A DNA stretch of 64,000 bases from the NCBI GenBank assembly GCA_965662335.1, contig CBFIGQ010000045.1, positions 1,156-65,155 of the forward strand. The letters are read 5' to 3'. Source of the DNA: Minisyncoccia bacterium (GTDB lineage Bacteria > Patescibacteriota > Minisyncoccia > Phycocordibacterales > UBA9973). Numbering within the stretch: position 1 is the stretch's first letter; each line of letters opens with the position of its first letter. Below, piece by piece: positions 4,166-54,627 of the stretch. The translations under genes were made by a program, and so were the position numbers. Below the pieces are notes generated by a model, which saw nothing but the letters and a program-made list of their open reading frames with translations, ran no database searches and had not been told where the DNA came from.

Positions 4166-4237
4166 GGCCCTATCGTCTAACGGTTAGGACGCCGGCTTTT
4201 CAAGCCGTTAATCGGGGTTCGATTCCCCGTAGGGTCA
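4166..4237 (+). tRNA. tRNA-Glu (anticodon UUC)
   Basis: Hand-folded: acceptor GGCCCTA/TAGGGTC, D-arm GTCT-AACGGTTA-GGAC, anticodon loop TTTTCAA, T-arm CGGGG-TTCGATT-CCCCG. Close to canonical bacterial tRNA-Glu. Confidence 0.75.
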
Positions 4238-5763: not shown

Positions 5764-5795
5764 ATATATCTTTAGATTATGAAAAAAGAATAGTC

Positions 5796-5928
5796 CGTAT
5801 TTGTCTCATTTCTTGCCTTTCTGCCCACCCACCGAATTCGATTGCGCCCGCACGGCGGGCGAGGATTTTCACCACCCACTCACCACCATCGCGCGACAGC
5901 GCGCGGGGCAACTTTTTGAGCAAGTATC
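5796..5928. repeat. IRa-R: inverted copy of IRa-L, immediately upstream of the recombinase start
   Basis: See IRa-L. It also produces the mirror ORF 5801-5983. Confidence 0.8.
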
Positions 5929-6108
5929 TGATTGTGATGTATTACTAACCTTTGCACGAACTTTTTTTGAACAAGAACACTAACGAATTCCGTCACGGCT
6001 CGGATTACCTCGCCGTTGCGCCCTTAGCCCTCATCGCTTTTCATTCTTGTTTTGTTTGGCGGGGGGATTCTTTTTGAAAAGGTATGGCGATGGGGCTTCG
6101 GGCGGGTA
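5929..6108. repeat. IRb-L: ~180-bp inverted repeat, partner of 11281-11460
   Basis: Reverse complement is near-identical to 11281-11460; only 1-2 mismatches seen by eye. Abuts IRa-R with no spacer. Confidence 0.85.
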
Positions 6109-6164
6109 ATTTAATTATATAACAACTTGGAATATAACACAAAGGAATATATCATAGAATATAT

Positions 6165-6386
6165 ATGAATAAGGCGATTTTTTCCAAAGATCATAAATAT
6201 ACTGTGGAACAGCTAAAAAAGGCACGTGCAGAGGCAGGTTTAGACCAAGTTGAGGTAGCAAAGATGCTTGGTAAAACTCAACCGCACATTTCAAAAATAG
6301 AAGCTGGGCAAAGACGACTTGATATTACGCAACTTAAAGAGTTTGCAAAAATTTATAAAAAATCTTTAACCTACTTCATAAAATAA
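6165..6386 (+). CDS. XRE-family HTH protein, probable R-M controller (C) protein
   Basis: 73-aa HTH_XRE fold (...VEVAKMLGKTQPHISKIEAGQRRL...). Sits directly upstream of, and co-oriented with, the putative endonuclease, as in C-R operons. Confidence 0.6.
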   Translation: MNKAIFSKDHKYTVEQLKKARAEAGLDQVEVAKMLGKTQPHISKIEAGQRRLDITQLKEFAKIYKKSLTYFIK

Positions 6387-6532
6387 TTTATGGCACTTTT
6401 TAAAATAAATAACAATATAGTAAAAAAGATTCTTACAAAAGATTTGGACTTGGAAAAAAATCTCCAAGGGCTTTTCGAAAATAATCTTGAAGAAATTTTA
6501 AACATAGTTTTTCTTGCCCATGAATAAATAAT

Positions 6533-7828
6533 ATGTATAAAATTAATTTACAAAAAACCTTCTTTCTTGCACTAGAAATATCGAGTCATTACAATAAAAG
6601 TTACTACAACACAAATGATTTGGTAAAATTGGCAAATCAATATAAATCTGATTTGGTTAGAACAAGAGTTGATAAAAAGGATTATAAATTTCTAGACGAT
6701 ACAAAATTCGGTGGATTACGAGGAAATTTCTCTACCTTGTTAACATTAAAAGGTTTTGTTAAACGAGGAAATAAAATTATACCTTTTTATTCTTTAGGGA
6801 TGGATGGTCGTATTGTAAATGCTGTAAATAATGGCGAGATAATACTTGATTCTTCTGATTTAACAGCTAATACAAAAAACGAGAGATTAAAAAATCTTCT
6901 TGAAAAAGAAGTATTTTTATCAAAGGTTAGGGAGAATCAGGCGCATATAAAAGTAATGCTTGAGAAAGATTCGGGCAAGCTTGGAATTAAAAGAGATAAT
7001 ATTTTTAAAAAAGATTCAGTCGTTGTAACCGAGAAAGGGCAATATTTTTTGAGATGTCTATTAAATAATTTTATAAATAATAATACAATTGAATACAGTT
7101 TATTTAATTACTGGTCAGGTAAGAAAATCATCAAAAAGAACATGCATATATTGATCAGTATTCCAACGATAGATAATTCTTGGGCTGAACTATATGCAAT
7201 TAAATTTGAAGATCTTATAAAAAACAAACCGATGTATTTGATGGTCTCTGTTGATACAAAAAAGTGCATGGATAGATCTGGTAATATTTATAATTTATAT
7301 AGTTTAGAACAAGCAAAGAATGAATTTTCTGATGGAAATGCAAATATAAATGAAAGATTATCTTATAATTGGAAAGATTTAATAAATAAAGAATGTAGTG
7401 ATGAGATTGAAATTCAAAAAGAGGTAAAACAACAGGAAACATGGATTTTTATTGATAAATTTCTACAATGGAAAAAACATTTTTCAATTGATGAAAAAGA
7501 TGTTGTTGATTACATAGTATCTAGTTCTGGTGGATGTGATGTTTTATTGAAATATTCAGGTGGAACAACACAAAAGCTAGAATTAGAACACGACTGGAAA
7601 AATTATATAGATCACAAACATCCTGAAAATAACGCATGGTCTGGTGCTTGGTTATTTGCCGAAGAAGAGTGGAATCCAGATCTAATAATTAAATTGTTTG
7701 AACCGCTAAAGAAAAAACATGGTGATAGAATACCAGATGTCTTCTTGTGCTTCGAAAACGGAGAAAGAAAAGCCTATAGAGCAAATTGGGGTAATAAAAA
7801 TTTCACTGAGCTATCTTTGTCTTTTTAA
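6533..7828 (+). CDS. putative Type II restriction endonuclease (hypothetical, very AT-rich)
   Basis: Positioned as R in a C-R / M-M convergent arrangement. C-terminal PDVFLCFENGERK fits a PD-x8-ExK nuclease motif. No other recognisable domain. Confidence 0.4.
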   Translation: MYKINLQKTFFLALEISSHYNKSYYNTNDLVKLANQYKSDLVRTRVDKKDYKFLDDTKFGGLRGNFSTLLTLKGFVKRGNKIIPFYSLGMDGRIVNAVNNGEIILDSSDLTANTKNERLKNLLEKEVFLSKVRENQAHIKVMLEKDSGKLGIKRDNIFKKDSVVVTEKGQYFLRCLLNNFINNNTIEYSLFNYWSGKKIIKKNMHILISIPTIDNSWAELYAIKFEDLIKNKPMYLMVSVDTKKCMDRSGNIYNLYSLEQAKNEFSDGNANINERLSYNWKDLINKECSDEIEIQKEVKQQETWIFIDKFLQWKKHFSIDEKDVVDYIVSSSGGCDVLLKYSGGTTQKLELEHDWKNYIDHKHPENNAWSGAWLFAEEEWNPDLIIKLFEPLKKKHGDRIPDVFLCFENGERKAYRANWGNKNFTELSLSF

Positions 7829-7829
7829 T

Positions 7830-8576
7830 TTAACTTTTTATATTTAGAACTTTTACTCCATCTATATCTTTTAATCGCTTTTTCATTATTTTAAAGAATT
7901 CTTGATCGTTTTCTATGTTTATAGAATTTCTTTTCATAGAGTCCGCAACTTCTGCTAAAGTCCCGCTACCAGCGAAGCAATCAAGTACTAGATCTTTTTC
8001 GTTAGTAAAAATTCTCATTAAATGTTCAATTACCTTTTTGGGTTTTTGTGTTGGATGTGCTGTTCTTTCTCTTCCCATACAAATTGGTGTTTGAATAAAA
8101 TTATGCATTTCATTTTGCTTTGAAAAGTTAAATGTATAAGATATTTTTTTATTATCAAAACCATGTGTAGCCCACAAAATAGCTTCACATGAAGACAAGA
8201 AACCGTTCTTCCTAATTTGTGGGGCGGGATTTGTTTTGTGCCAAATTATTGTAGCGTGATGTTTAAATCCTAATCTTTCATATATACGCTTTATATCACT
8301 TATATATTCCAATTTTGAAAATACTAAAAGATTTCCATTTTCCTTTAAAATAGGAGTAATCAATTTCAACCATTCTTCGGTAAATTTCAAGTAATCATTG
8401 TTGCTAAAATAATCCCATTTTCCAAAATCGGAAGACCTTGCTTTTCTACCCTTGAGAATCTTGGTATTTTTATTTGCTGTATTATAGGGTGGATCGACAA
8501 TAACAGCATCAATTTTGTTTTTTATTGTTGGCAATACTTTAAACACATCGCCTTTTATTAAATAATGTTTATTCAT
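7830..8576 (-). CDS. DNA amino-methyltransferase (beta class, N6A or N4C)
   Basis: Motif IV DPPYN comes before motif I FAGSGT (beta-class order). HPTQKP motif present. Confidence 0.8.
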   Translation of the reverse strand: MNKHYLIKGDVFKVLPTIKNKIDAVIVDPPYNTANKNTKILKGRKARSSDFGKWDYFSNNDYLKFTEEWLKLITPILKENGNLLVFSKLEYISDIKRIYERLGFKHHATIIWHKTNPAPQIRKNGFLSSCEAILWATHGFDNKKISYTFNFSKQNEMHNFIQTPICMGRERTAHPTQKPKKVIEHLMRIFTNEKDLVLDCFAGSGTLAEVADSMKRNSINIENDQEFFKIMKKRLKDIDGVKVLNIKS

Positions 8577-8582
8577 ATAATT

Positions 8583-41600: not shown

Positions 41601-42665
41601 ATGGCAAAAGACTATTACGCAACACTCGGCGTCCAAAAAGGCGCATCAAAAGATGAAATCAAAAAGGCATTTCACAAAATGGCGCATAAGTATCACCCCG
41701 ACAAAAACGGTGGTGACGAAGCAAAGTTCAAGGAGGTAAATGAGGCATACCAGGTGCTCTCAGACGACCAAAAGCGCACGCAGTATGATCAGTTTGGCTC
41801 AGAAGGACCGCAGATGGGTGGAGGCGGACAAGGATTTGGAGGATTTGATTTCAGTGGCTTTGGGCAAGGTCAGCATGGATTTGAATTTGATCTTGGGGAT
41901 ATGTTTGGAGACTTTTTTGGAGGAGGAAGTCGCGCACGGTCGCGCCGTGGGGCAGATCTACAGACCACGGTACAGGTCAGCTTCAAAGATGCCGTGTTTG
42001 GTATTGAGCATTCAATCAAAATTAAAAAGCCTTCTACCTGCAGCACATGCAAAGGAAATGGTGCTGAGCCTGGAACACATCTAGAAACCTGTACGCAGTG
42101 TCAGGGTAAGGGGCAGGTGCGAAATATTCAGCGTACTATTCTCGGATCTATCGCGACAAACGAGATCTGCGATAAGTGTCATGGAACTGGTAAAATTCCA
42201 AAAGTTGCCTGCAAGCACTGCCACGGCCGCGGTGTTGTAAACGAAGAACGCACTATCAAAATAGCTATCCCGGCAGGCATCCAAAATGGCGAGACCCTCA
42301 GACTTGCGGGTATGGGGGAGGCTATACAGGGCGGACAGTCTGGTGACCTGTATGTGCACATCACCGTTGCGCCGCACAAGAGCATACGCCGTGAGAAGTC
42401 TGATTTGGTGACAACGCTCCCGATCAAGCTCACCGATGCGCTTCTCGGTGCGACATATGCAGTCGAGACGCTCGATGGTATGGAGTCGATCACGATCCCT
42501 GCAGGCACTCGCGTCGGCGATAGTGTCACACTTAAAGGTAAAGGTGTCCCAGTCTCAAGCCACAAACGCGGCAACTTCATCATCAAGCTCGACATCAAGC
42601 TTCCCGAGAAACTTTCAAAACATGCAAAGGAGGTGATAGAGGAGCTTAAAAAGGAGGGAATATAA
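41601..42665 (+). CDS. dnaJ: chaperone DnaJ
   Basis: J-domain HPD (KYHPDKN), G/F region, and four CxxCxGxG zinc repeats. ATG 41601 preferred over track TTG 41574. Confidence 0.9.
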
Positions 42666-42708
42666 AAACCAAGCACATAACTGTACTTGGTAAGCTTTTA
42701 GCAACTTC

Positions 42709-42981
42709 TTAATTTTTAATAATACCCTCTGCGGTATTCCAGTTAACTTTTGTAATATGCAAATAATCCTGACTCGTTAGTTCCCTATCGGGAATTTTTT
42801 TGATTGTGACGATAGTAAAATCATCTGGGTCATCCTTTGTATCTGCTACACAAATCTGAGTACCATATGGATAAATTTTTGCATAGTGAACTTTACCGGT
42901 TTTTTTAATTTCCATGGGCCTATCGGTTGCTGTACGAATATTAAAGCCTTTATGGAGCTTTGAGAGTGATTCATTTGCCAT
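42709..42981 (-). CDS. hypothetical protein
   Basis: ORF track only. Confidence 0.3.
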   Translation of the reverse strand: MANESLSKLHKGFNIRTATDRPMEIKKTGKVHYAKIYPYGTQICVADTKDDPDDFTIVTIKKIPDRELTSQDYLHITKVNWNTAEGIIKN

Positions 42982-43069
42982 TGGTTTTACAATTTGAACT
43001 CATTATAGTCTCTAAAGGTGCTAAGTCAAAGAATGTACAAAAATCTATTTTTTAGTACAATTTGCTCAT

Positions 43070-44527
43070 ATGGCATCGACTGAAGAACTGCGAAATGAAC
43101 GGCTGAAAAAGAAGGCACTACTTGAGTCAAAAGGTATTAATCCATACCCGGCGACTACTGCACGCACTCACCCCATAGATATATTTATTGACGAGTTCTC
43201 ACTTCTTGAGGAGCCCAAGGAAGTTGTCACACTTGCAGGGCGCATCATGAGTAAGCGCGGACAGGGTGGGCTCGCATTTGCAGATATATTTGATGGCACG
43301 GGCACGATGCAGCTCTTTTTAAAGAGTGATGAGATGGACTCCGACCTGTATCAGCTCTGGAATGACACAACTGATGTCGGTGACTTCGTTGAGGCAACAG
43401 GTATTGCATACACGACCAAGCGTGGTGAAAAGGCGCTCTTTGTATCGGGTTGGAGTATGCTTACCAAGTCACTCCTTCCGCTTCCTGAGAAATGGCATGG
43501 CCTCACTGATGATGATGAGCGCTACCGCAAGCGATACCTCGACATCCTCACCAACCCAGAGCTCCGCGCAATGTTTGAGAAGAAGGCGAAGTTTTGGGAC
43601 GTGACGCGCACCTTCATGAAGGAGCACGGATTTATGGAAGTCGAAACGCCGACGCTCGAGGTCACGACTGGCGGTGCCGAGGCCAATCCATTCAAGACAT
43701 TCCACAAGGACTTTGCCCTCGATGTGTTCATGCGCATCTCAGTCGGCGAGCTCTGGCAGAAGCGCCTGATGGCAGCCGGGTTTCCCAAGACCTTTGAGAT
43801 CGGACGAGTGTACCGCAACGAAGGAAGTAGTCCTGATCATCTCCAGGAGTTTACCAACATGGAGTTCTACTGGGCATATGCCGACTATGAAAAGGGTATG
43901 AGACTTGTGGAGGAACTCTATAAGCGTATCGCGACGGAAGTGTTTGGTACGACAACATTTACTACCCGAGGACATACCTTTGACCTAAACGATGAGTGGA
44001 AGAAAATAAACTACGTACAGGAAATAGAGAAACAAACTGGTATCAATGTACTCGATGCCTCAGAATCCGACATGACTGCAAAGCTCGACGAACTCGGTGT
44101 GAAATACACCGGTACCAACAAGGAGCGCCTGACTGATACGCTCTGGAAGTACTGCCGGAAAAATATATCTGGTCCTGCATTTCTCGTGCGCGTACCCAAG
44201 CTTGTATCTCCGCTTGCAAAGTCTGCCTCAGATGATCCTCGTGTGACTGAACGATTCCAAGTACTTATTGCAGGATCTGAAGTTGGAAATGGCTTCAGCG
44301 AGCTCAATGACCCAGTTGATCAGCGCGCACGATTTACACAACAGCAAGAGATGATCGAGCGGGGAGACGACGAAGCGATGATGCCTGAATGGGAATTCGT
44401 CGACATGCTCGAGCACGGTATGCCGCCGACGTGCGGATTTGGATTTGGCGAGCGACTCTTTGCGTTCCTTGTTGACAAACCGCTCCGCGAAACGCAGTTG
44501 TTTCCATTGCTGAAACCAAGAGAGTAG
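43070..44527 (+). CDS. lysS: lysine--tRNA ligase (class II)
   Basis: Class II motifs and the ...FGFGERLFAFLVDKP... C-terminus typical of LysRS. Confidence 0.9.
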   Translation: MASTEELRNERLKKKALLESKGINPYPATTARTHPIDIFIDEFSLLEEPKEVVTLAGRIMSKRGQGGLAFADIFDGTGTMQLFLKSDEMDSDLYQLWNDTTDVGDFVEATGIAYTTKRGEKALFVSGWSMLTKSLLPLPEKWHGLTDDDERYRKRYLDILTNPELRAMFEKKAKFWDVTRTFMKEHGFMEVETPTLEVTTGGAEANPFKTFHKDFALDVFMRISVGELWQKRLMAAGFPKTFEIGRVYRNEGSSPDHLQEFTNMEFYWAYADYEKGMRLVEELYKRIATEVFGTTTFTTRGHTFDLNDEWKKINYVQEIEKQTGINVLDASESDMTAKLDELGVKYTGTNKERLTDTLWKYCRKNISGPAFLVRVPKLVSPLAKSASDDPRVTERFQVLIAGSEVGNGFSELNDPVDQRARFTQQQEMIERGDDEAMMPEWEFVDMLEHGMPPTCGFGFGERLFAFLVDKPLRETQLFPLLKPRE

Positions 44528-44677
44528 TGCGTTCGGTTTCTTGACTTTTTGAAAATAGAGTCAAGCAAGGACCGTCCTTGCTGGACTCAAAAGATCGTTG
44601 ACTTCTCCCAAAACCTCATAGTATACTAGGCATACTATGCAGAAAAGGGATAAAATGCATAGTACAATATACATATT

Positions 44678-45955
44678 ATGCTAAAATCAACTGTTTTCAA
44701 GCAAAAAGAGGATCGAGACAGACTTTTGTCGCTTCCATACATAGAGAGAACCAAGGAGAAAGACATGGAAAAATGGCTCTCTTCGGACTTGATAAAAGTC
44801 ATTCTCGGTCCTCGCCGAGCGGGAAAATCCGTCTTTGCTCTGATGCTTCTCAAAGGGCAGGATTTTGCGTATTTCAACTTCGACGATGAATCGCTTGTCG
44901 ACGAAAAGATTGATCTCGACGAACTCCTTTCGGAACTCAAACAAGTCTATGGAGATACGAAATACATTTTCCTTGATGAAATACAAAACCTGCCGGGCTG
45001 GGAACTATTTGCCAATCGTCTGCACCGAGCAGGATATAATCTCGTACTTACCGGATCAAATGCCTCGCTTCTTTCAAAAGAACTTGCAACGCACCTTACC
45101 GGCAGGCATATTCCGATAGAAATATTGCCATTTGATTTCAAGGAAATTCTAAAAGCGAAACAGTATAAATTCAGAGCAGACAACATGCTTCTGCCTGAAG
45201 AAAAAGCAACACTTCAGGGATATATAATCCAGTACATGACCAACGGAGGGTATCCAGAGGTTGTTATCAAAGACCTCGAACCACGAGGGTATCTTGATAT
45301 GTTTTTTGATTCAGTCCTTTTTAAGGACGTTATCAAGCGTCACAATGTTCGTTTTTCTAAACAGATAGATGGTCTTGGTTCATATCTTATAAACAATGTT
45401 GCAAGCCAGTATACCGCTCGAAAATTGGCCAATGTACTTGCATTCAAAAGCGATGTGACAGTATCAAAATATCTCGGGTATCTCACCGAGGCGTATGTGA
45501 TTTTCTCCCTCGATCGACATTCAACAAAAGCCGGCAGCAGACTTCAATCTCCAAAGAAAACATACGTTGTAGATAATGGTCTTGTTACTGCGAAAGCAGT
45601 CCAGCATTCTCCAAACACTGGCAAGCTGATGGAAAACCTCGTATTCATAGAATTGGTAAAAAGGGGCAATCAGCCAAACCGCGAATTATTTTATTACAAA
45701 ACCCGCAATGATCGAGAAATAGATTTCGTCCGGAAAGAAGGATATAAGGTGGTAGAGCTTATACAGACGTCGTATGATGTGAGCAATCCTGATACCTTAG
45801 GGCGGGAGATAAAAGCGCTTGTCGAGGCCGGAGAGGAACTGGATGTCACAAAACTCACACTAATTACGTGGAATGAAAAACGGGAGGTAGAAAAGGGTGG
45901 AGTGACCATTCAGGTTGTCCCGTTGTGGGAGTGGCTCATGGAGTCGACGCGGTAA
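44678..45955 (+). CDS. AAA-superfamily ATPase (AAA_14 + DUF4143 type)
   Basis: Walker A GPRRAGKS, Walker B IFLDEIQ, and a DUF4143-like C-terminus. Confidence 0.7.
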   Translation: MLKSTVFKQKEDRDRLLSLPYIERTKEKDMEKWLSSDLIKVILGPRRAGKSVFALMLLKGQDFAYFNFDDESLVDEKIDLDELLSELKQVYGDTKYIFLDEIQNLPGWELFANRLHRAGYNLVLTGSNASLLSKELATHLTGRHIPIEILPFDFKEILKAKQYKFRADNMLLPEEKATLQGYIIQYMTNGGYPEVVIKDLEPRGYLDMFFDSVLFKDVIKRHNVRFSKQIDGLGSYLINNVASQYTARKLANVLAFKSDVTVSKYLGYLTEAYVIFSLDRHSTKAGSRLQSPKKTYVVDNGLVTAKAVQHSPNTGKLMENLVFIELVKRGNQPNRELFYYKTRNDREIDFVRKEGYKVVELIQTSYDVSNPDTLGREIKALVEAGEELDVTKLTLITWNEKREVEKGGVTIQVVPLWEWLMESTR

Positions 45956-46099
45956 TCCGCTGTCCAAGACATCATCAACGACCTCGTCGCGCAATACGAA
46001 CGCCTCTTTGGCAAAGCATCACACGAAGTGTGCAAGCATGCAGTGGCGGGGTTGATTACGCAGCTTGGGGAAGGGGAGGTGCCAAAAGCGTGTAGTTGA
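45956..46099 (+). pseudogene. promoter-less 3' remnant of a paralogue of gene 53486-53767
   Basis: In frame directly after the ATPase stop codon. Translation ...DLVAQYERLFGKASHEVCKHAV... matches the C-terminal 45 aa of ORF 53486-53767 (~65% aa identity by eye). Confidence 0.5.
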
Positions 46100-46134
46100 T
46101 GTTAGTCTATGAAAAATCCGTAGGTATGGTATAA

Positions 46135-47568
46135 TTGACTGCAATACTTGCAGGGTTCAGCGGGGTGATCCCTCCTGGGAAAGACTGTGTAGAAGCATAC
46201 AATATGGATTATAGAGCTATTGCAAATACAATAACCACTAGAGCACTTGAATTCTTCGGTAGTCGTTTAGATGCCGTTTTGTTATACGGGTCTACAACTA
46301 CAAAATCTCAAAAACCGAACGACCTTGATCTGATTATTGTTTTAAAAGAAAGGGAGACTATTGGCGATTTTTCTTTTGTAGGAGAACAAATGAAGCACTA
46401 TTCAATAGAGATGGATATTCAAATAATAAATACTTCCGACATTCGAGCTGATTATTTTTCTCATGATTCGCACGGTCAGTTTTTTATAAAGTTCTTACAA
46501 AAAGAGTCACAAGTGCTTTATGGACAAAATCCATTTCTTAATTATTTCCCCAAATACTCAAGTCAAGTGATAAGTGTTTTGCAGAAAGCGCAATATTATT
46601 ATTTTAGAGCAAAAAAGACTCAGGCCGATGATGCTATTAATAGCATTGACAGCAGATTTCATAGGAAAAAATTACTACTTATGCTTGCTGATTTTTGGCT
46701 TATATACAACGGAGAATGTATCAAAATTCAAGATAAAACAGAGCTTGAAAAAGTCGTAGCTGCCTTGACTAAAGTACCTGTAGTTGCAAGCGATATCAAA
46801 TTTTTATTAGAAGAGGGGCAAAATGACGCTCCGTGGAGCGATATTTTTGATATATATCAGAGGTATTATTTTTCTTTTTTGGATATTGTGCAGAAAAGAA
46901 TAACCATCTCATCATTTACTGCCGAGGGTATACATATTGAGTTACGAAAAGTGCCCTTAACAAAAAAACTTGTTATTCTCGCATCCGGCTGGCCAAGTCA
47001 TTATGATGAATCGGAAATAGCTACCTTTTTTGCGATACGAAACTATGACGTTGCAACATTTCATTATCCCGCAACTGGTATGAGCGACAGCATTGCTTTT
47101 GGTGACCCAATAAAAGCACTTTCTGGGGTTATAAAAGCATTTTCTCAAGATCATACATATGATGAAATTGAAATCATTGGGAATAGCTATGGAGGGTATG
47201 CTGTACTGGGTATTGATGAGACTCATCGCATGCTAGTAAATAAAATAATCGCGGTTTCTCCTGTACTCAATTTTCGAGCAGTCAAGGGTATTGAGACTTT
47301 ACCAAATTTCTTATATGAACAAGACAAGCATTGGTATCGATTTGCTCCAGGAGAGTTTGCTGCATTTATTAACGAGACCCCATCAATTACTCAGGCGAGG
47401 GATAAAACATATATAATCCATGGTGTGCACGACGATCAAATTTCAATTTCCGAAATTCAGAGTTTCTGTGATAAAAATAATATTCCGCTTGAAAAGGTAG
47501 ATGCCGGACACCTGTCATTCAACAGGGTAAGCAGGGAACAGTTATATGCGATAGCAAAATTTTTGTAA
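46135..47568 (+). CDS. nucleotidyltransferase (Pol-beta-like) / alpha-beta hydrolase fusion protein
   Basis: N-terminal YGSTTT...NDLDLIIV (minimal NTase G[SG]...D.D). C-terminal GNSYGG nucleophile elbow (GxSxG). Confidence 0.5.
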   Translation: MTAILAGFSGVIPPGKDCVEAYNMDYRAIANTITTRALEFFGSRLDAVLLYGSTTTKSQKPNDLDLIIVLKERETIGDFSFVGEQMKHYSIEMDIQIINTSDIRADYFSHDSHGQFFIKFLQKESQVLYGQNPFLNYFPKYSSQVISVLQKAQYYYFRAKKTQADDAINSIDSRFHRKKLLLMLADFWLIYNGECIKIQDKTELEKVVAALTKVPVVASDIKFLLEEGQNDAPWSDIFDIYQRYYFSFLDIVQKRITISSFTAEGIHIELRKVPLTKKLVILASGWPSHYDESEIATFFAIRNYDVATFHYPATGMSDSIAFGDPIKALSGVIKAFSQDHTYDEIEIIGNSYGGYAVLGIDETHRMLVNKIIAVSPVLNFRAVKGIETLPNFLYEQDKHWYRFAPGEFAAFINETPSITQARDKTYIIHGVHDDQISISEIQSFCDKNNIPLEKVDAGHLSFNRVSREQLYAIAKFL

Positions 47569-47572
47569 GGTT

Positions 47573-48448
47573 ATGTTTTATTGTAAAAATTGCAAAAAAG
47601 TATTAAGTCTTCGACAACAAATATCTCTTTCAAAAGAATGGAGGTTTGATACTATAGAAAATTTTTTTAAAGAAACCCAAGAGGTATATCCTGATCCGAT
47701 CAGGTGTTCTCATTGCAGTGAGATATTTGATAAATATGCTCTTACAGAAATTGGTATGTACCATCATTTCCCGCACAGAAAGCAGGGAACCGGTACCAAT
47801 TTTCATAGTATTTATAAGAAACGTGCAAATATATACCATCAATTTAGTCTCGCCGAAGACCAAGAGGGGTTGATTTTGCAGAAAATCATTGATCTTTCTG
47901 TTGGAGCAAATACTCTCCTCGATATTGGTTGTGGTACTGGTAAATATGTTAATCAGTTGAGCGAGGTTTTTAAAAAAATATATGCACTTGATAATTCTTC
48001 TGAACTCCTTACTTTCGCAAGGAAAAATAACAAAAAAATCTCCAATATAGAATATCTTCTTGCTGATGCCGCACATATACCGCTTCTTGATAAAAGCGTC
48101 GATGTAATAATATCGACGTGGGGTTCGTTTTCGCCCAACGAAACCGTTCATGAGATGAAACGTGTACTATCTGACAGTGGAATTATTATCCGTATCGGTA
48201 TAACTGCACTTGATGATCTTACTGAGTTTTTTGGTGAATTTGATAAGAAATATGTATCTGAAAATAACGACTATTTTGCATTGCTTGGATTTGCTACTGA
48301 ATATATGAAAATCAATGTTACCTTTGATACACTTGCAGAGGCAAAGCACGTGATTGCTGCCATAACTGGAAAGCCGATGAATACCATCACCCAAAAAACA
48401 CTCATCCACAAGGTTATAGTACAGACATACAAAAAGCCGACCAATTAA
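47573..48448 (+). CDS. class I SAM-dependent methyltransferase with N-terminal zinc ribbon
   Basis: CKNCKK...CSHCSE zinc ribbon and LLDIGCGTGKY motif I. Confidence 0.7.
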   Translation: MFYCKNCKKVLSLRQQISLSKEWRFDTIENFFKETQEVYPDPIRCSHCSEIFDKYALTEIGMYHHFPHRKQGTGTNFHSIYKKRANIYHQFSLAEDQEGLILQKIIDLSVGANTLLDIGCGTGKYVNQLSEVFKKIYALDNSSELLTFARKNNKKISNIEYLLADAAHIPLLDKSVDVIISTWGSFSPNETVHEMKRVLSDSGIIIRIGITALDDLTEFFGEFDKKYVSENNDYFALLGFATEYMKINVTFDTLAEAKHVIAAITGKPMNTITQKTLIHKVIVQTYKKPTN

Positions 48449-48461
48449 TCAATAGGTCGGC

Positions 48462-49295
48462 TTATACTCGCAACTCCTTTCTACTTGTTAAGAACCCTTT
48501 TGTCATTTTACCGATGTCTTCTTTGGTTATCTCTGAAATACTTTTCTTGGTATCAAGCCAAACACAGGGTAATCCTTTGAGGTGTATTTGCAGTGATGGC
48601 TCGATGGTTTTTGCCAATAACCCACACAGAAATGCCTGGCTGGAAACTCGATGTACAAAGTGGAGTGTAATATCCTTTTTTCCCCAAAGGTTGCTCAAAT
48701 AAACAAGCCCGTATGCCCATACTACCTGATGTTTGAGGCCAAAAACTTTTGTACCCAATTTGATTTTTATCGGTCCGCTCTCCTTGCTAATTTTATACCG
48801 TACTCCATTGTTTCGTTCTCTAAAACTAGTGAGATCATTCTTGACCCATTGTTGGTTTTCAGAAATAAAGGGAAGAGTATTATCCAAGGATAAGCTAAGA
48901 ACTTCAATTTCTTCTTCAAAAAGCGGCGTTTCGCAATATGTGCAAACGTGCTCCTGAACCCTTCGCTGGTTATACATGCGTATTCCTGATATTTCTTCAA
49001 ACATTTTGCAAGTACAGGTTGTGACTACTTGTGGGTGCACAGTAGTTTTAAGCGCAGGTACTCTATGTTGCAAATATAACAGAAACGATGGATCAGCGTC
49101 CTTGAAAAAACCGTCAAAAGGGGCAATTTTTTGTAAAACAAGAGTTTTATAGGCTTCTGATTCCGATGGATCGGCATTCATGGTAGTAAGTGACAAAATA
49201 CGAATTCCAGACGATTGTTGAATTGACAAAGGAGTAAATAAAGATTCTGCCGGGGCTTTGAGTTTTGGTTGGAGCGGAAGGCTTACATGTATCAT
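48462..49295 (-). CDS. hypothetical protein
   Basis: ORF track. Cys pairs (CTC, CTYC) hint at a zinc site. Confidence 0.35.
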   Translation of the reverse strand: MIHVSLPLQPKLKAPAESLFTPLSIQQSSGIRILSLTTMNADPSESEAYKTLVLQKIAPFDGFFKDADPSFLLYLQHRVPALKTTVHPQVVTTCTCKMFEEISGIRMYNQRRVQEHVCTYCETPLFEEEIEVLSLSLDNTLPFISENQQWVKNDLTSFRERNNGVRYKISKESGPIKIKLGTKVFGLKHQVVWAYGLVYLSNLWGKKDITLHFVHRVSSQAFLCGLLAKTIEPSLQIHLKGLPCVWLDTKKSISEITKEDIGKMTKGFLTSRKELRV

Positions 49296-49487
49296 TATTT
49301 AATTTTTTATTAAACAATATATTTAAATAATAAAATGTCAATAGCTGCCAGTCGAGATCTTTATACAAGAACAAATCACGAAGCGAGGCGAGGATAAATA
49401 TGTCGTATTTCGGGTTTCGTGGTATAGCTGAATGCATAATGCAACACGAACTCTTGATTGCAATACTCGCAGGGCTCGGTGAAAAGA

Positions 49488-49606
49488 CTTGAGCACGGCA
49501 TGCCGCCGACCTGCGGATTTGGATTTGGCGAGCGACTCTTTGCATTCCTTGTCGACAAGCCGCTTCGCGAAACACAGTTGTTTCCACTGCTAAAACCTAA
49601 GGAGTA
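49488..49606 (+). pseudogene. diverged duplicate of the last ~40 codons of lysS (island boundary/att remnant)
   Basis: Aligns to 44408-44527 at roughly 90% nt identity by eye. Encodes ...EHGMPPTCGFGFGERLFAFLVDKPLRETQLFPLLKPKE* with mostly synonymous differences. Confidence 0.7.
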
Positions 49607-49656
49607 GTATTGACTAAAAAAATATTTCATGGTATTGTTTCAAAAAAATAAGAACC

Positions 49657-50265
49657 ATGAAATGTGTAATCTTGTGTACTCTTTTTGCGCTTTTTGGAGC
49701 GACTGTAACAGGTCAGAGATTGTATTCTATTACTGAACACCAGATGCTGTACAAAGGTGAATACTATCTCACCAACTACACGTCCTATAAGCTCACAGAC
49801 CGCTTTGGAATATCCATAGATGTGGGTAAATACCCTGGCTACCTTGACGCGGGGGCGGGTGTAGTATTTGCAAGTAATTCTGATGTGCATCCCAAATTTT
49901 ATTGGGAAGCAGGTATGGGGCTGGGCACTACTTTTTCATCCACTAAAGGAGAAAAAAATACGTACTACTCACAGCTTTATATCTGGATGGAAAATCTTCC
50001 CGATCAACAGCTTGCTGAGGGTAAGGTATGTATTCAGCTCAACCCTGCATATGCCTTCGGGTCAGATGATCCTTGGTGGATGCAGCACTATATCGTGTAT
50101 AGCATTACTAAAAACATTGCGATCGGAGCGCACTATCAGGCCCATAGCGCCTCAGGCGTGCGTGCTGAGTTCAATCTCAGACTCGCAGAAGGGGTAGTGC
50201 TTCGCACGTATGGGGTTATGGGTACATCCGGACTTATTGGAGTATCTTTTATAGTATTAAGGTAA
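49657..50265 (+). CDS. hypothetical secreted protein
   Basis: N-terminal signal peptide. Tyr/Gly-rich, possibly a beta-barrel-like protein. Confidence 0.35.
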   Translation: MKCVILCTLFALFGATVTGQRLYSITEHQMLYKGEYYLTNYTSYKLTDRFGISIDVGKYPGYLDAGAGVVFASNSDVHPKFYWEAGMGLGTTFSSTKGEKNTYYSQLYIWMENLPDQQLAEGKVCIQLNPAYAFGSDDPWWMQHYIVYSITKNIAIGAHYQAHSASGVRAEFNLRLAEGVVLRTYGVMGTSGLIGVSFIVLR

Positions 50266-50281
50266 GTATTTAGTCATTTCG

Positions 50282-50308
50282 ACCGGCATTCGTGCCGGTT
50301 GTTTTTTT
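50282..50308 (+). terminator. rho-independent terminator (accggca-UUCG-tgccggt + T8)
   Basis: Read directly. The UUCG tetraloop hairpin overlaps the track start of the next ORF. Confidence 0.65.
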
Positions 50309-50333
50309 TATGTATATGTGGTCAAATAACGGA

Positions 50334-50729
50334 ATGGAAACAACTACGTTCGGTGAGCACCTTATGCTTGATTGTTATGGTGCAAACAAGGAACTTCTAA
50401 ACTCCCGTGAGCTCGTAGAAAAAGTGCTGCGCGAACTTCCGTCAGAACTCGGCATGCATCTTTTATCAAAGCCTGAGGTGTACTTTGCAGAGGATAATGG
50501 CAAAAAGGACCCGGGTGGGTGGAGTGGCTTTGTGGTCATCATGGAAAGTCATTTGAGTATTCATACGTTTGTAGGTCGAGAATTCCTAAGCGCAGATATC
50601 TATACCTGTAAAAATGGCATGGATATTGAATATATTATCGAATATTTCAGAAACGCATTTCAAGCAAAAGACATAGAAGTAAATTTTGTGAAGCGTGGAA
50701 CGAGATATCCTTTAGCAGATATTGAGTAA
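50334..50729 (+). CDS. speH: S-adenosylmethionine decarboxylase proenzyme (small, SpeH-type)
   Basis: ...LLMLDCYGAN... and the self-processing ESHLSIHTF motif (cleavage between E and S gives the pyruvoyl group). Start moved to METTTF downstream of the terminator. Confidence 0.6.
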   Translation: METTTFGEHLMLDCYGANKELLNSRELVEKVLRELPSELGMHLLSKPEVYFAEDNGKKDPGGWSGFVVIMESHLSIHTFVGREFLSADIYTCKNGMDIEYIIEYFRNAFQAKDIEVNFVKRGTRYPLADIE

Positions 50730-50734
50730 GTAGT

Positions 50735-51667
50735 ATGTGGATTTTTTTAACATTTATTTCCGTATTTCTGTGGTCACTTGTAAATATTTCCGACCATTAC
50801 CTAACTGAAAAAAATAAGGCAATAGGCCACCCTGTGGGAGCACTGGTTATATTTTCAAGCGTCTTTGCAATCATTGTTTCCGCGCTTGTGTACGTCTTTC
50901 TAGGAAACAGCGTTGCTATCTCCTGGCATAGTCTTTGGATAGTACTTATCGCCGGTGTATGCAACCTGTTGTGGATCGTATTTTATCTTAATGCACTTGC
51001 AGATGAGGAGGTGTCATATGTTATCCCATGGTTTCTAACTGTGCCACTCTTTGGGTACTTGTTCGGGTATCTTTTTTTAGGAGAGACACTTACTACAATG
51101 CAGATTATTGGCGGACTTATTGTCATCATTGGAGGGCTCATATTCTCTGTAAAAAAGGACAAGGACGAAAACGGGGAAACGCTCGGTACCTACTCAGTCA
51201 AATGGAAGCTGATTGGGCTAATGGTCGTTTCTTCGCTATTGATTGCGCTTTGGATCACATTGTTTAAGTTTGTTGCAGAGGCAACAAGCTTTTGGCAGGC
51301 AACGTTTTGGGAGCATATCGGTCTGTTCATTGCAGGACTGATGGTACTCATTTTTATAAAAAGTTACCGAGATGGATTTATGGGCATGTTGCGAAAGGGA
51401 GGAAGACAGACGCTTGCTATTAACGCCTTCTCAGAAACTGCAACTATTGTTGGAAACCTGATTGCAAACTATGCTGTGCTCGCTGTTCCTGTAGCTCTCA
51501 TACTTGTACTTGAGGTAGCGCAACCTGTTATTGTGTTTCTTCTTGGTATTGTGACAACCTTATATTTCCCGCATATTCTAAAAGAAGATATTTCAAGGCC
51601 GACAATACTCTATAAATCGTTGTGCCTTGTCATAATGGTCATCGGAGCAATCCTGATGGCATACTAA
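50735..51667 (+). CDS. EamA/DMT-family transporter
   Basis: About 10 TM helices arranged as two EamA-like repeats. Confidence 0.6.
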   Translation: MWIFLTFISVFLWSLVNISDHYLTEKNKAIGHPVGALVIFSSVFAIIVSALVYVFLGNSVAISWHSLWIVLIAGVCNLLWIVFYLNALADEEVSYVIPWFLTVPLFGYLFGYLFLGETLTTMQIIGGLIVIIGGLIFSVKKDKDENGETLGTYSVKWKLIGLMVVSSLLIALWITLFKFVAEATSFWQATFWEHIGLFIAGLMVLIFIKSYRDGFMGMLRKGGRQTLAINAFSETATIVGNLIANYAVLAVPVALILVLEVAQPVIVFLLGIVTTLYFPHILKEDISRPTILYKSLCLVIMVIGAILMAY

Positions 51668-51702
51668 GAACTCTTTTTTGTGCTATATTCTTTAGACCGT
51701 TT

Positions 51703-52632
51703 ATGATTCCAACATTTCCAGAATTTAAGCCTCTTGAACTCAGTGATCGCGATGAGGTACGCCAGCTTACCGGGCAATATCCCCCTTATTCTGATTTCAA
51801 CTTTATTTCAATGTGGTCGTGGGATATTAAGGGAGAAATGCGATTGTCGATGCTCTATGGCAATCTCGTTGTACGATTTAACGACTATCTGACGGGCCAA
51901 CCATTCTATTCATTCATCGGTACCACAAACGTAAATGAAACTGCTACTACACTTCTTGAGTACTGCAAGGCACATGATATACAGGCAAAACTATGTCTCG
52001 TACCAGAGGTCAGTGCGAGTCTACTTGATACCAATACGTTCTCGATAGAAGAGGAGCGCGATCATTTTGATTATATATACGAAGTCGAAAAGGTTAAAAC
52101 CTACGAGGGTGGTACGCATAAAAGCCATCGCAAGTCAGTTCGTTATTTTGAGCAAAACCACACCTACGAACAAAAAATACTCGATATCACACAAGAAGAA
52201 AATCAGGAGCGACTCATTGCTCTAGTACAGCTTTGGATAAAAAATAAATCTGAAAAAAACCTTGCGGCAAATGAACTCGATGATTTTTTTAACGAATACC
52301 TTGCTCTAAAACGTATCTTTTCTGCCCCGAAGGAGCTTTTAGATTCTGTCATTTGTTTCAGTGTCTTTGTTGATGGAGAGCTCAGCGGCTTTATGATAGA
52401 TGAGCGTGTTGCAGACAAGTACTGTATCTCACACTTTGGTAAAACAAATATTGCACACAAAGGCGCCATGCAATTTTTGATGAAAACAAGCACAAACAAT
52501 TTCTTTGATCTTGGAGTGCATTATTATAATGATGAGCAAGACCTCGGATTGCCAAGTCTTCGGAGAACCAAAAGCTCGTACCATTTGGCACACTTTTTGA
52601 GAAAGTACAGTGTTTCTTTTAAAAATGGATAG
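51703..52632 (+). CDS. DUF2156 (MprF/LPG-synthase C-terminal-like) domain protein
   Basis: N-terminal ...LELSDRDEVRQLTGQYPPYSDFNFISMWSW matches the hallmark start of the aminoacyl-PG synthase C-domain family. Start moved to Met 51703 to avoid overlap with the transporter. Confidence 0.45.
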   Translation: MIPTFPEFKPLELSDRDEVRQLTGQYPPYSDFNFISMWSWDIKGEMRLSMLYGNLVVRFNDYLTGQPFYSFIGTTNVNETATTLLEYCKAHDIQAKLCLVPEVSASLLDTNTFSIEEERDHFDYIYEVEKVKTYEGGTHKSHRKSVRYFEQNHTYEQKILDITQEENQERLIALVQLWIKNKSEKNLAANELDDFFNEYLALKRIFSAPKELLDSVICFSVFVDGELSGFMIDERVADKYCISHFGKTNIAHKGAMQFLMKTSTNNFFDLGVHYYNDEQDLGLPSLRRTKSSYHLAHFLRKYSVSFKNG

Positions 52633-52648
52633 TATATACTTTTAGTAT

Positions 52649-53470
52649 ATGGAAGAAGCAAAGGCAACGCTGGCTCATAAATTTATCATTATTCCAACAA
52701 TTTTATTTATCTTCTTTACTGGATGGTTTTTATATCTGCATGTAGTACATGCAGATCCTGAGAGTACTAGTGCGCAGGTATGGGCAGCTTCGTATCAAAT
52801 TGTCGCGCTTGTAGGTGCGTTTTATGGATTGTATTACTCAAGAATTTGGGGTGGATGGAAAAGCGTACTTGGCCGTGCAAATATAATGTTTGCTATTGGA
52901 CTATTTCTACAGGCATTTGGACAATCAGTATTTAGTTACTTCTTTTATATAGGAGTTGAGGCTCCGTACCCATCTTTGGCCGATGCTGGCTTCTTTGGAA
53001 GTATATTCTTTTATATCTATGCAATAGTGCTTCTATCACGTGCTATGGGTGTACATGATTCATTAAAATCATTTTCAAAAAAGGTAGTGTATCTACTGCT
53101 TCCGATTGCCTTACTCATTATGACCTATGTTCTATTTCTTAAGGACTACAGCGTGGATCCATCTTCGCCACTGACCACATTCCTTGATTTTGGATATCCG
53201 ATTGGTCAGGTTATCTACGTAGCACTTGCGGTATCTGCGTATATTAGCTCACGAAACTTTCTTGGTGGTGTCATGAGGAAGCCAATTGTACTTTTTATTG
53301 CGGCGCTCGTAGTTCAATATGTTGCTGATTTTGTCTTTTTGCTACAGACCAGTAACGGTACCTATACGGGCAGTCAAAATGTTGATTACATTTACTTCCT
53401 TGCATACTTCCTAATGACTATTAGCTTGATTCGTCTCGGATCTGTATTTTATAAAATTCGAAACGCATAA
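52649..53470 (+). CDS. polytopic membrane protein, candidate detached sensor module
   Basis: 7-8 TM helices. Sits directly upstream of a TM-less histidine kinase. Confidence 0.4.
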   Translation: MEEAKATLAHKFIIIPTILFIFFTGWFLYLHVVHADPESTSAQVWAASYQIVALVGAFYGLYYSRIWGGWKSVLGRANIMFAIGLFLQAFGQSVFSYFFYIGVEAPYPSLADAGFFGSIFFYIYAIVLLSRAMGVHDSLKSFSKKVVYLLLPIALLIMTYVLFLKDYSVDPSSPLTTFLDFGYPIGQVIYVALAVSAYISSRNFLGGVMRKPIVLFIAALVVQYVADFVFLLQTSNGTYTGSQNVDYIYFLAYFLMTISLIRLGSVFYKIRNA

Positions 53471-53485
53471 CCGCAGAGTTAGTAT

Positions 53486-53767
53486 ATGGATATCTTTACT
53501 CAAATTATCACACGAATAATCAAAGAGCAGGAACTCATCATCGGTCCGCTTGCATGGATTGAGGCAAACAAAGTCGAGGGGCTTGAGGTGCATGAGCAAG
53601 GTGTTATTACCATCTCGCCACAAACACGACCGCAAAAAGTTGTGGATGATCTTGTCGCGCAGTACGAAAGACTTTTTGGAAAGGCGTCTCACCAGGTATG
53701 CAAAAATGCAGTAATTGCACTCATTAGTCAGCTTACCCCCGAAGAGCTTCCTGCAAGTCTTGCCTAA
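53486..53767 (+). CDS. small hypothetical protein (a paralogous remnant lies at 45956-46099)
   Basis: ORF track. Lies between the membrane protein and the HK. Confidence 0.35.
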   Translation: MDIFTQIITRIIKEQELIIGPLAWIEANKVEGLEVHEQGVITISPQTRPQKVVDDLVAQYERLFGKASHQVCKNAVIALISQLTPEELPASLA

Positions 53768-53772
53768 GCCTT

Positions 53773-54627
53773 ATGTCTAGCGATCCCTCCTCAGATGAAT
53801 TTCAGAAAGCAACCGAAGAGCTCTACAAGCAAAACTTGGAGGTTGTTAAGCTTAATAAGCGACTAGGAGATCTAACTCATCAGCTTGAGAAATCAAACAT
53901 CGACCTTGCCGATGCCAATGAAAAATTGAAAAGTGTGGACAAACTCAAAACCGAGTTTCTTTCACTTGCATCTCACCAGCTTCGTAGTCCTCTCACTGCG
54001 ATCAAGGGGTACTCGTCAATGCTTATCGAGGGATCTTTTGGAGAAATGCCCGAAAAAATAGCTGAGCCAGTAAAGCGTATTTATACTTCTGCGCAAGGCT
54101 TGGTCAGTATTGTCGAGGACCTGCTCAATGTCTCAAAAATAGAGCAGGGAGGAATGAAATATGAAATGTCTGAGGTTGACCTCGCGCCACTCGTAAAAAC
54201 GTTATTTGCAGAAATGCAGATTCCAGCGCAAAACAAAAAAATTAATTTTACTATGCACGTTGCAGAAAATGAAAAATTTATGACTCTCGCCGATGCTGTG
54301 AAAATCAAACAGGTACTCCTCAATCTCACTGATAACAGTATCAAATACACCCCGGAAGGCGGAACGGTAGATATATCACTAACTCGTGTTGACGGTACTA
54401 TAGAGTTTGCGGTCAAAGACAATGGTGTAGGTATTTCACCAGAAACAAAGGCAAAACTATTTGAAAAGTTCTCACGAGGTGAGGGCGGCAAGATGAATAC
54501 TGGAGGATCAGGGCTTGGGCTCTATCTTGCAAAGCAGATAGCACTCGCGCATAAAGGCGACATCGTCATTGAAAGTGAAGGATTGGGCAAGGGATCAGTC
54601 TTTAAGGTAGTATTGCCGTCACTGTAG
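53773..54627 (+). CDS. sensor histidine kinase (cytoplasmic HisKA + HATPase_c)
   Basis: H-box LASHQLRSPL, N-box LTDNSIKYT, and G-boxes DNGVGI and GGSGLGL. No TM segment and no adjacent response regulator. Confidence 0.8.
   Translation: MSSDPSSDEFQKATEELYKQNLEVVKLNKRLGDLTHQLEKSNIDLADANEKLKSVDKLKTEFLSLASHQLRSPLTAIKGYSSMLIEGSFGEMPEKIAEPVKRIYTSAQGLVSIVEDLLNVSKIEQGGMKYEMSEVDLAPLVKTLFAEMQIPAQNKKINFTMHVAENEKFMTLADAVKIKQVLLNLTDNSIKYTPEGGTVDISLTRVDGTIEFAVKDNGVGISPETKAKLFEKFSRGEGGKMNTGGSGLGLYLAKQIALAHKGDIVIESEGLGKGSVFKVVLPSL

Follow-up and report, generated by a model that had tools for sequence, protein, structure and literature searches.

The 3' end of the lysyl-tRNA synthetase gene lysS occurs twice in the genome of a Minisyncoccia bacterium (Patescibacteria, Candidate Phyla Radiation (CPR)), once in the intact gene and once as an orphaned fragment about 5 kb downstream, and the locus raises the question of how the two tails came to differ and what brought the DNA that now lies between them. 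The window, that is, the whole stretch of DNA analyzed, comprises 64,000 nt of assembly GCA_965662335.1 (contig CBFIGQ010000045.1, positions 1,156-65,155, forward strand) and belongs to a genome of the Paceibacteria/Nomurabacteria type. Gene order around lysS is dnaK-dnaJ-(hyp90)-lysS-island-lysS'-hyp202-speD-EamA-LPG_synthase_C-orf273-X93-histidine kinase-cysS, in which lysS' is the orphaned tail; the remaining open reading frames (ORFs) of the window are, as judged by eye, housekeeping genes. A first-pass annotation, made from the letters alone, had proposed a genomic island integrated at lysS whose integrase has been lost or acts in trans.

The tail of the functional gene is referred to here as the L copy and the orphaned tail as the R copy (Table 1). 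A repeat search paired 44408-44528 with 49488-49608 at 89% identity and a spacing of 5,080 nt; the window holds just two other long repeats. By exact count, 107 of 120 bases are identical and 11 of the 13 differences are transitions; they fall in 12 codons, 11 of them changed synonymously and one from arginine to lysine (AGA to AAG), with the reading frame and the TAG stop codon kept in both copies. The first-pass annotation had described a duplicate of about 90% identity with mostly synonymous changes and the same stop, and the exact alignment (89% over 120 nt) lies close to that estimate by eye. When 13 random substitutions were simulated 100,000 times with the observed transition bias, none of the runs gave one or fewer amino-acid changes and the mean was 8.3 (P<1e-5). 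Given that 11 of the 12 differing codons are synonymous, the divergence arose while both tails ended working lysS genes, and the two tails must have evolved apart in separate genomes under purifying selection, as had also been claimed. The limits of the repeat are sharp, since in MAFFT alignments similarity is absent to the left of 44408/49488 and ends one base past the stop codon on the right, and the peptide that precedes the R copy in its frame (LQYSQGSVKR, after a stop at 49455) bears no relation to lysS.

The locus was compared with the 80 closest lysS loci in GTDB species representatives, all of them metagenome-assembled genomes of the same type (lysS protein identity 63-89%); an exact-protein look-up of the window's lysS matched no record. 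In three of these relatives (L002, L003 and L006) speD begins 13-20 nt after lysS and is followed by EamA and LPG_synthase_C, as it is downstream of the island in the window, so that the uninterrupted junction, or unoccupied site, is seen at the level of species; none was found at the level of strains. The same duplicate in the same place, as an old fixed duplication would leave it, was looked for and found in none of the 80 loci, none of which has a second lysS C-terminus within 10 kb or any of the island genes. Among the relatives' tails, the L copy is nearest to those of L013 (85%) and L006 (84%) and the R copy to that of L014 (85%). The first 25-45 nt past the R copy (TAGTATTGACT...TATTGT, promoter-like) can be aligned with the sequence found past lysS in L014, L005 and L015, and L014 carries a hyp202 homologue directly after lysS; in the window, this promoter (TTGACT at 49610, 17-nt spacer, TATTGT) precedes hyp202, and an intrinsic terminator (50280-50301 and a T-run) follows it. 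The DNA past the L copy (44528-44588) is shared by none of the relatives. Since the flank of the R copy is that of the relatives and the flank of the L copy matches none of them, it is the R copy that keeps the ancestral type of downstream linkage. The contiguity of lysS and speD in relatives, the lack of a second tail in the 80 loci and the native flank of the R copy together show that the DNA of about 5 kb that separates the copies was inserted and that a gene tail was displaced, and to this extent the proposal of a genomic island at lysS stands.

The two copies share an exact run of 32 nt, and the arrangement might be an assembly artefact in which sequences of different strains were wrongly joined at the conserved lysS tail. 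De Bruijn graphs are interrupted at this run, and at k=31 the graph by itself gives no means of telling an integrated island from an empty site with a separate circle. Look-ups in Logan with hyp277 and hyp202 found the same species in three samples (ERR15116721, SRR27197495 and SRR27197491); these contigs are k=31 assemblies that all end inside the shared 32-mer and are silent on an empty site or a circle, and the 5,108-nt island contigs were rejected as circles because their ends are the k-mer-limited repeat. Nevertheless, one and the same island contig was recovered from the three independent samples at 99.3-100% identity and with identical end points, and the downstream contig, recovered from SRR27197495 and ERR15116721, has the same first base in the two samples. 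Moreover, the variants at 44431 and 44464 flank the run within 34 nt and are phased by ordinary reads, and the window contig spans both junctions. An artefact of this kind is, in our estimation, extremely improbable.

A precedent for the arrangement is e14 (and phage 21) in the icd gene of Escherichia coli, where insertion leaves the C-terminal pseudogene icdC and the replacement tail differs mostly synonymously (PMC13626634). As at icd, the insertion at lysS lies in the 3' end of an essential housekeeping gene, which has received a replacement tail, and the displaced original remains as a partial direct repeat at the far junction. The island could on this model be a site-specific integrative element whose integrase was lost, leaving a remnant like a cis-mobilizable element (CIME), or which is mobilized in trans; its attP would have carried the replacement lysS tail, the crossover would have fallen in the region of motif 3, and the right-hand part of the island (module B, see below) would have accreted later. 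The topology is right for integration, with direct repeats at both junctions (120 nt at 89%), an intact lysS ORF and a restored reading frame. The homology sets in about 24 nt before the 32-nt run and extends as far as the stop codon; the gene hit is essential and highly conserved over the targeted segment; and a large serine recombinase is encoded in the same 64-kb window. The synonymous pattern has its counterpart in icd and icdC (PMC13626634), and the internal repeat scars of the island (D5 and X', Table 1) are of the kind that tandem accretion gives. Other points speak against the model. The 32-nt run encodes motif 3 of class II aminoacyl-tRNA synthetases (aaRS), and its bases are also nearly identical in L001 and L013, so that coding constraint accounts for the identity and the core of an attachment (att) site is not needed to explain it. 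Scans with Pfam, NCBIfam, PHROGs and PADLOC revealed no integrase, transposase, relaxase or replication function in the island ORFs, nor is an excisionase or transfer gene present, and blastn of the island DNA against 50,697 phage and 72,556 plasmid records gave no match. None of the 80 related loci holds the same island or any other lysS-occupying element, and the island genes occur apart elsewhere and do not travel together.

The sole recombinase of the window, the large serine recombinase (4177-5763, minus strand), lies 40 kb from the island in a separate island between two tRNA genes, and its action in trans at lysS is conceivable but unsupported. The lysS island further differs from e14, which encodes its own integrase and excises on SOS induction, in having no recombinase, phage genes or phage/plasmid similarity and in carrying chromosomal scraps of a related genome. 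Integrase-less cargo between att-like direct repeats is known from CIMEs and from tandem accretion at the att sites of integrative and conjugative or mobilizable elements, which also yields composite islands with internal repeat scars. Unlike in those cases, no cognate integrase-bearing element that targets lysS was found, and the repeat identity is explained by coding constraint. We therefore regard an integrase-borne element as the main rival of the reading proposed below, yet as unlikely, and the part of the first-pass annotation that invoked an integrase, lost or acting in trans, lacks support.

The second island that contains the serine recombinase spans 4166-11947, between tRNA-Glu (4166-4238) and tRNA-Ser (11860-11947). 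The recombinase gene is flanked by 146-nt inverted repeats (4235-4370 and 5792-5937, 87%), and 176-nt inverted repeats (5932-6107 and 11280-11455, 99.4%) bracket a helix-turn-helix gene, a 431-aa ORF, an N6/N4 DNA methylase and a LexA-S24::methylase fusion. This island may be an invertible or integrated restriction-modification element.

The lysS insert had been taken for one element, yet it proves to be a mosaic that combines a low-GC module with a promiscuous DUF4143 cassette and two scraps of gene 3' ends from the chromosome of a related genome; we divide it into module A (44528-46134, GC 40-51%) and module B (46135-49477, GC 33-40%). One scrap is the 61-nt flank of the L copy, which with its hairpin ends exactly 90 nt before the ATG of the DUF4143 gene and which retains a TTGACT box shortly past the lysS stop, as relatives do. 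The other, X', confirms the gene remnant noted at first pass and traces it to a gene, now reduced to its C-terminal 47 codons, that is homologous to the 93-aa ORF of the window (53486-53767); X' has 62% identity to this ORF in tblastx over 45 aa (53633-53767) and is likewise 62% identical to L004 (15122-15238). This 93-aa gene family was found only in the window and in L004, about 4 kb downstream of lysS in both. Given that X' is a 3' fragment of a clade-limited gene located near lysS and that the L flank keeps its TTGACT box, the incoming DNA looks chromosomal rather than element-like.

A related-organism origin is also in keeping with the history of lysS itself. The dnaJ gene of the window is 92% identical in nucleotides to that of L001 and at most 73% identical to that of any other relative, whereas lysS is only 80% identical to that of L001, no better than to any other relative, and in every comparison except that with L001 lysS is more conserved than dnaJ. 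This discordance indicates that lysS was allelically replaced in the lineage of the window or in that of L001. It can be asked whether such a replacement alone produced the diverged tails, i.e., whether an identical duplication arose in situ, for instance at insertion, and the functional lysS, the L copy included, was subsequently replaced by a diverged allele through homologous recombination. The scenario makes use of a replacement for which the dnaJ and lysS identities speak, and it yields divergence of the synonymous type with no special integration mechanism. It requires two independent events, however, and the foreign-looking L flank (44528-44588) forces the end of the replacement tract into the interval between 44588 and the cassette; the R copy, moreover, is not closer to L001. 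We consider this sequence of events very unlikely.

Some further observations concern the same end of the locus. Between the window (42032-44527) and L001, the spacer of dnaJ and lysS cannot be aligned, and the L001 contig stops exactly in the lysS stop codon, as if broken at a lysS-tail repeat there too. Between dnaJ and lysS the window also holds an ORFan of 90 aa (42709-42981, minus strand) in a patch of 35% GC, for which no family match was obtained; since this spacer varies from 178 to 946 nt among relatives, the ORFan would be another small variable insertion.

The reading that we favor, tentatively and with a probability of roughly 0.45, is that chromosomal DNA of a related Paceibacteria-type genome was captured without the help of a recombinase, with lysS homology as its anchor. 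The incoming DNA would have brought a donor lysS tail with its downstream flank, together with the DUF4143 defense-candidate cassette, a leftover of the donor's 93-aa gene and the low-GC three-gene module. It would have paired with the resident lysS by homology, and its non-homologous end would have been joined inside the resident gene, 120 nt before the stop, either by homology-facilitated illegitimate recombination or, equivalently, by a single crossover of a circularized fragment. The functional lysS would now be finished by the donor tail (L copy), and the resident tail (R copy) would have been moved 5 kb downstream, still with its own promoter and hyp202. What we infer here, as opposed to observe, is the pathway of recombination, which way the DNA moved and in what sequence the events took place. 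Several observations are in keeping with the capture. The homology is one-sided, with the lysS tail on the left and an abrupt joint at 49487/49488 that has no homology upstream; the chromosomal, related-organism character of the insert is seen in the X' remnant, the clade-type lysS flank and the discordance of lysS and dnaJ; and that discordance, together with the alternative gene sets found downstream of lysS (see below), shows that the lysS region is recombinationally active.

A comparable displacement has been described for the orphan arrays of type VI secretion effector-immunity genes in Vibrio cholerae and for the orphan C-terminal modules of Rhs and contact-dependent inhibition (CDI) systems, where it was attributed to homology-facilitated illegitimate recombination (PMC5361080). 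There, as proposed here, the incoming DNA finds its anchor in a conserved gene segment upstream and, with no integrase, shifts the old 3' end and the genes behind it further along in place of replacing them. The orphan arrays serve the diversification of toxin tips, in contrast to the lysS tail, which is conserved and housekeeping; only one displaced layer is certain at lysS, and the pattern occurs in none of the 80 relatives.

Several points weigh against capture by homology. The homology starts 24 nt before the most conserved segment of lysS and runs exactly to the stop codon, as in a purpose-built attP, and a donor in which lysS adjoins a DUF4143 gene is absent among 80 DUF4143 loci. The R copy is no closer to the lysS of L001 than the L copy is (85% vs 88%), so that its status as the resident copy is not proven; an attempt to name the resident tail from site-by-site states in relatives and L001 met a star-like phylogeny and gave ambiguous results. 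Finally, other DUF4143 cassettes are flanked by duplications of 58-108 nt, which hint at a more systematic mechanism.

The last point calls for a closer look at the cassette. Its ATPase matches the PADLOC candidate defense gene PDC-S01 (AAA_14 + DUF4143, COG1373) end to end (E=3e-103), an assignment that names the cargo only, as neither defense activity nor a mobility mechanism is established for the family. The DUF4143 domain has been classed as PD-(D/E)XK (PMC3424549), and almost nothing else was found in the literature on DUF4143 or COG1373; searches for relatives in viral contigs and in the PDB found none. The ATPase has more than 5,600 homologues, the best 120 of which (P0003-P0122) are 74-100% identical, or 74-88% when the window's own sequence is left out, and are named by their sources from Gracilibacteria, Peregrinibacteria, Vogelbacteria, Jacksonbacteria and Paceibacterota, many of them on short contigs. 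It is far more conserved than lysS, which falls to 63% already among the 80 closest loci, and this argues for recent horizontal spread across CPR phyla. In more than 70 metagenomic loci, nucleotide similarity is limited to about 44592-45943 (promoter, leader and ORF), the flanks are unrelated, and no other part of the island is present; the cassette is thus mobile independently of the DNA that surrounds it here.

The unit carries a strong promoter of its own (TTGACT at 44598, 18-nt spacer, TATACT) and a leader with an inverted repeat of 9-10 bp (44633-44641 and 44656-44664), whose loop holds a Shine-Dalgarno-like AAAGGG and a third half-site of which overlaps the -10 box. Compensatory changes were observed in four of six pairs of this repeat across 30 loci (window 44598-44677 and its equivalents in L089-L138), and it looks like an autoregulatory operator or a leader hairpin. 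Rfam gave no match for the leader, and the island is empty at the gathering threshold and at E<=1.

It is conceivable that the cassette was itself the agent at lysS, inserting by hairpins or gene 3' ends and duplicating 25-120 nt of its target, perhaps by means of its own AAA+/PD-(D/E)XK protein; the lysS duplication would then be its footprint, later stretched by the insertion of module B at D5. The identity of 74-91% that the cassette keeps across CPR phyla between unrelated flanks is in favor of this, as is the classification of its domain (PMC3424549). Five unrelated metagenomic contigs carry a single DUF4143 gene closely enclosed by direct repeats of 58-108 nt, which contain host gene tails and/or strong hairpins (Table 1), and in five DUF4143 loci the distance from the end of the upstream repeat copy to the ATG is 88-90 nt, which is the very position at which the hairpin of the window ends. 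A fresh target duplication would be identical, however, and the lysS copies differ at 11% of positions, nearly all of them synonymous, which needs two genomes; what lies directly to the right of the cassette is X' and not lysS'. About 55 of 66 DUF4143 loci have no flanking repeat within 600 nt, the short flanking repeats of L137 are genome-wide intergenic repeats, and for the DUF4143 family no transposase-like chemistry is known and no relative has been solved. It thus seems quite unlikely that the cassette made the lysS duplication.

A broader conjecture, to which we give similarly little credence, is that DUF4143/PDC-S01 genes are self-contained, single-gene mobile cassettes of CPR bacteria, with their own promoter and operator and no conventional transposase or integrase, which duplicate tens to about 120 nt. 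Insertion 3' of hairpins or gene ends might then be effected by the encoded protein or by repeat-mediated excision followed by homology-guided re-insertion after DNA uptake. If this were true, DUF4143 cassettes would be a major route by which defense genes spread through streamlined CPR genomes, and the lysS duplication would be one footprint of it. L091 and L191 carry two DUF4143 paralogues in tandem (379 and 423 aa), and a 127-nt repeat of hairpin plus promoter, 100% identical between its copies, stands before each of them (1633-1759 and 3051-3177 in L091); the hairpin occurs again before the next gene (4549-4571), a layout that resembles a cassette array.

Module B is of low GC, consists of rare genes and is bracketed by the 24-nt direct repeat D5, for which two matches with at most three mismatches were found and none was expected in 100 shuffles. 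Its first gene, the nucleotidyltransferase/hydrolase fusion, most likely starts at the ATG at 46204 and belongs to a family with only 16 matches in 5.8e9 proteins. Homologues in L169, L173 and L176 lie in a three-gene operon with a 177-aa P-loop kinase-like gene and an ORF of 325-329 aa that has no Pfam match; these partners differ from those in the window, and the partners in module B are not conserved elsewhere. The enclosed genes had been listed at first pass as a DUF4143 ATPase, a remnant, this fusion, a methyltransferase and a hypothetical protein, and the list holds with corrections, which concern the domains of the ATPase (AAA_14 + DUF4143), the identity of the remnant, the start of the fusion and the nature of the hypothetical protein. 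This protein, hyp277, has about 12 homologues in 1.84e9 representatives. An AlphaFold2 (AF2) model built with a 12-sequence alignment reached a predicted local distance difference test score (pLDDT) of 91, as against 33 from the single sequence, and the best Foldseek matches of the model were the catalytic domains of MetRS, GluRS and CysRS (E=1e-7, template modeling (TM) score 0.6). The family has an invariant CxC...CxxC zinc knuckle and a conserved KISK but no clear HIGH and no Pfam match, and the protein has no anticodon-binding domain. On the predicted structure, hyp277 is probably a class I aaRS-like paralogue; it had also been considered as a cryptic recombinase, a reading that was rejected on the match of its fold to aaRS catalytic domains. 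Its neighbors are the fusion and the methyltransferase, and the three genes may make up a small module for aminoacyl-dependent modification or biosynthesis.

Downstream of lysS, the gene content up to the histidine kinase gene also varies within the clade, with speD-EamA-LPG_synthase_C in L002, L003 and L006 and, in L014, L015 and L005, a hyp202-like gene with two small ORFs. In the window, the first gene of the hyp202-type set, preceded by the R copy, is joined to the speD-EamA-LPG_synthase_C set. The R copy and hyp202 may, on slender grounds, represent an earlier displaced layer; the DNA upstream of speD resembles the lysS-speD spacer of the first type, a similarity that is weak and suggestive only. 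Flexibility relative to L002-L015 extends over 49657-54627 of the window, where the kinase gene encodes 284 aa, compared with 547-574 aa in relatives, and orf273 and the 93-aa ORF lie directly upstream of this short kinase gene.

Table 1. Features of the lysS locus, in window coordinates, and repeats flanking DUF4143 genes in other contigs, in the coordinates of each locus.
Feature	Position	Strand	Basis or remark
Intact lysS, class II lysyl-tRNA synthetase, 485 aa	43070..44527	+	Pfam tRNA-synt_2, E=4e-67; OB anticodon domain
L copy, last 39 codons and TAG of functional lysS	44408..44527	+	Repeat search, alignment, exact count
Longest exact run common to both copies, 32 nt, encoding CGFGFGERLF	44432..44463; twin 49512-49543	+	
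Foreign-type lysS downstream flank, TTGACT-containing stretch and hairpin with 15-bp stem (44558-44588)	44528..44588	+	Fold energy -19.8 kcal/mol
Module A core, DUF4143/AAA_14 ATPase cassette (ORF 44678-45955)	44589..45957	+	Pfam, PADLOC
X' remnant, C-terminal 47 codons and stop of a 93-aa ORF homologue, no start codon	45958..46100 (143 nt)	+	
D5-left, 24-nt direct repeat, just after a TATAAT box	46135..46158	+	
Gene 1, Pol-beta-type nucleotidyltransferase fused to alpha/beta hydrolase (S9-like)	46204..47568	+	Pfam
Gene 2, class I S-adenosylmethionine (SAM) methyltransferase with N-terminal Cys pairs	47573..48448	+	Methyltransf_11, E=4e-18; NCBIfam sub-threshold only
Gene 3 (hyp277), stand-alone protein like a class I aaRS catalytic core, 277 aa	48462..49295	-	AF2 and Foldseek
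D5-right, 21/24 identical, 10 nt before the R copy	49454..49477	+	
R copy, orphaned lysS 3' end, 39 codons and TAG	49488..49607	+	Repeat search, alignment, exact count
Native-type DNA joined to the R copy: promoter, hyp202 (49657-50265), terminator	49608..50310	+	Alignment to relatives' flanks
speD-EamA-LPG_synthase_C block	50334..52632	+	Directly follows lysS in L002, L003 and L006 (empty-site configuration)
L117 repeat, 99 nt, 98%	1686-1784/3189-3287		Host gene tail and hairpin; both differences synonymous
L144 repeat, 107 nt, 86%	86-192/1617-1723		Tail of a convergent sugar-transferase gene
L138 repeat, 108 nt	1-108/1501-1608		
L143 repeat, 105 nt	1484-1588/2703-2807		
L159 repeat, 58 nt	1-58/1598-1655		

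We contend that the lysS locus represents a fairly ordinary kind of island, which is probably not integrase-borne, and that a diverged duplicate of a gene's 3' end is by itself not a signature of an integrase. The duplications that flank DUF4143 cassettes, their covarying operator-like leader and the rare aaRS-like paralogue are leads rather than results. Patescibacteria have tiny genomes with few recognizable mobile elements, and how they gain accessory and defense genes is poorly documented. The lysS locus provides a clean, datable example, in which the orphaned tail records the displaced allele and the cargo would have arrived with no element-encoded recombinase, riding on homology to an essential gene.

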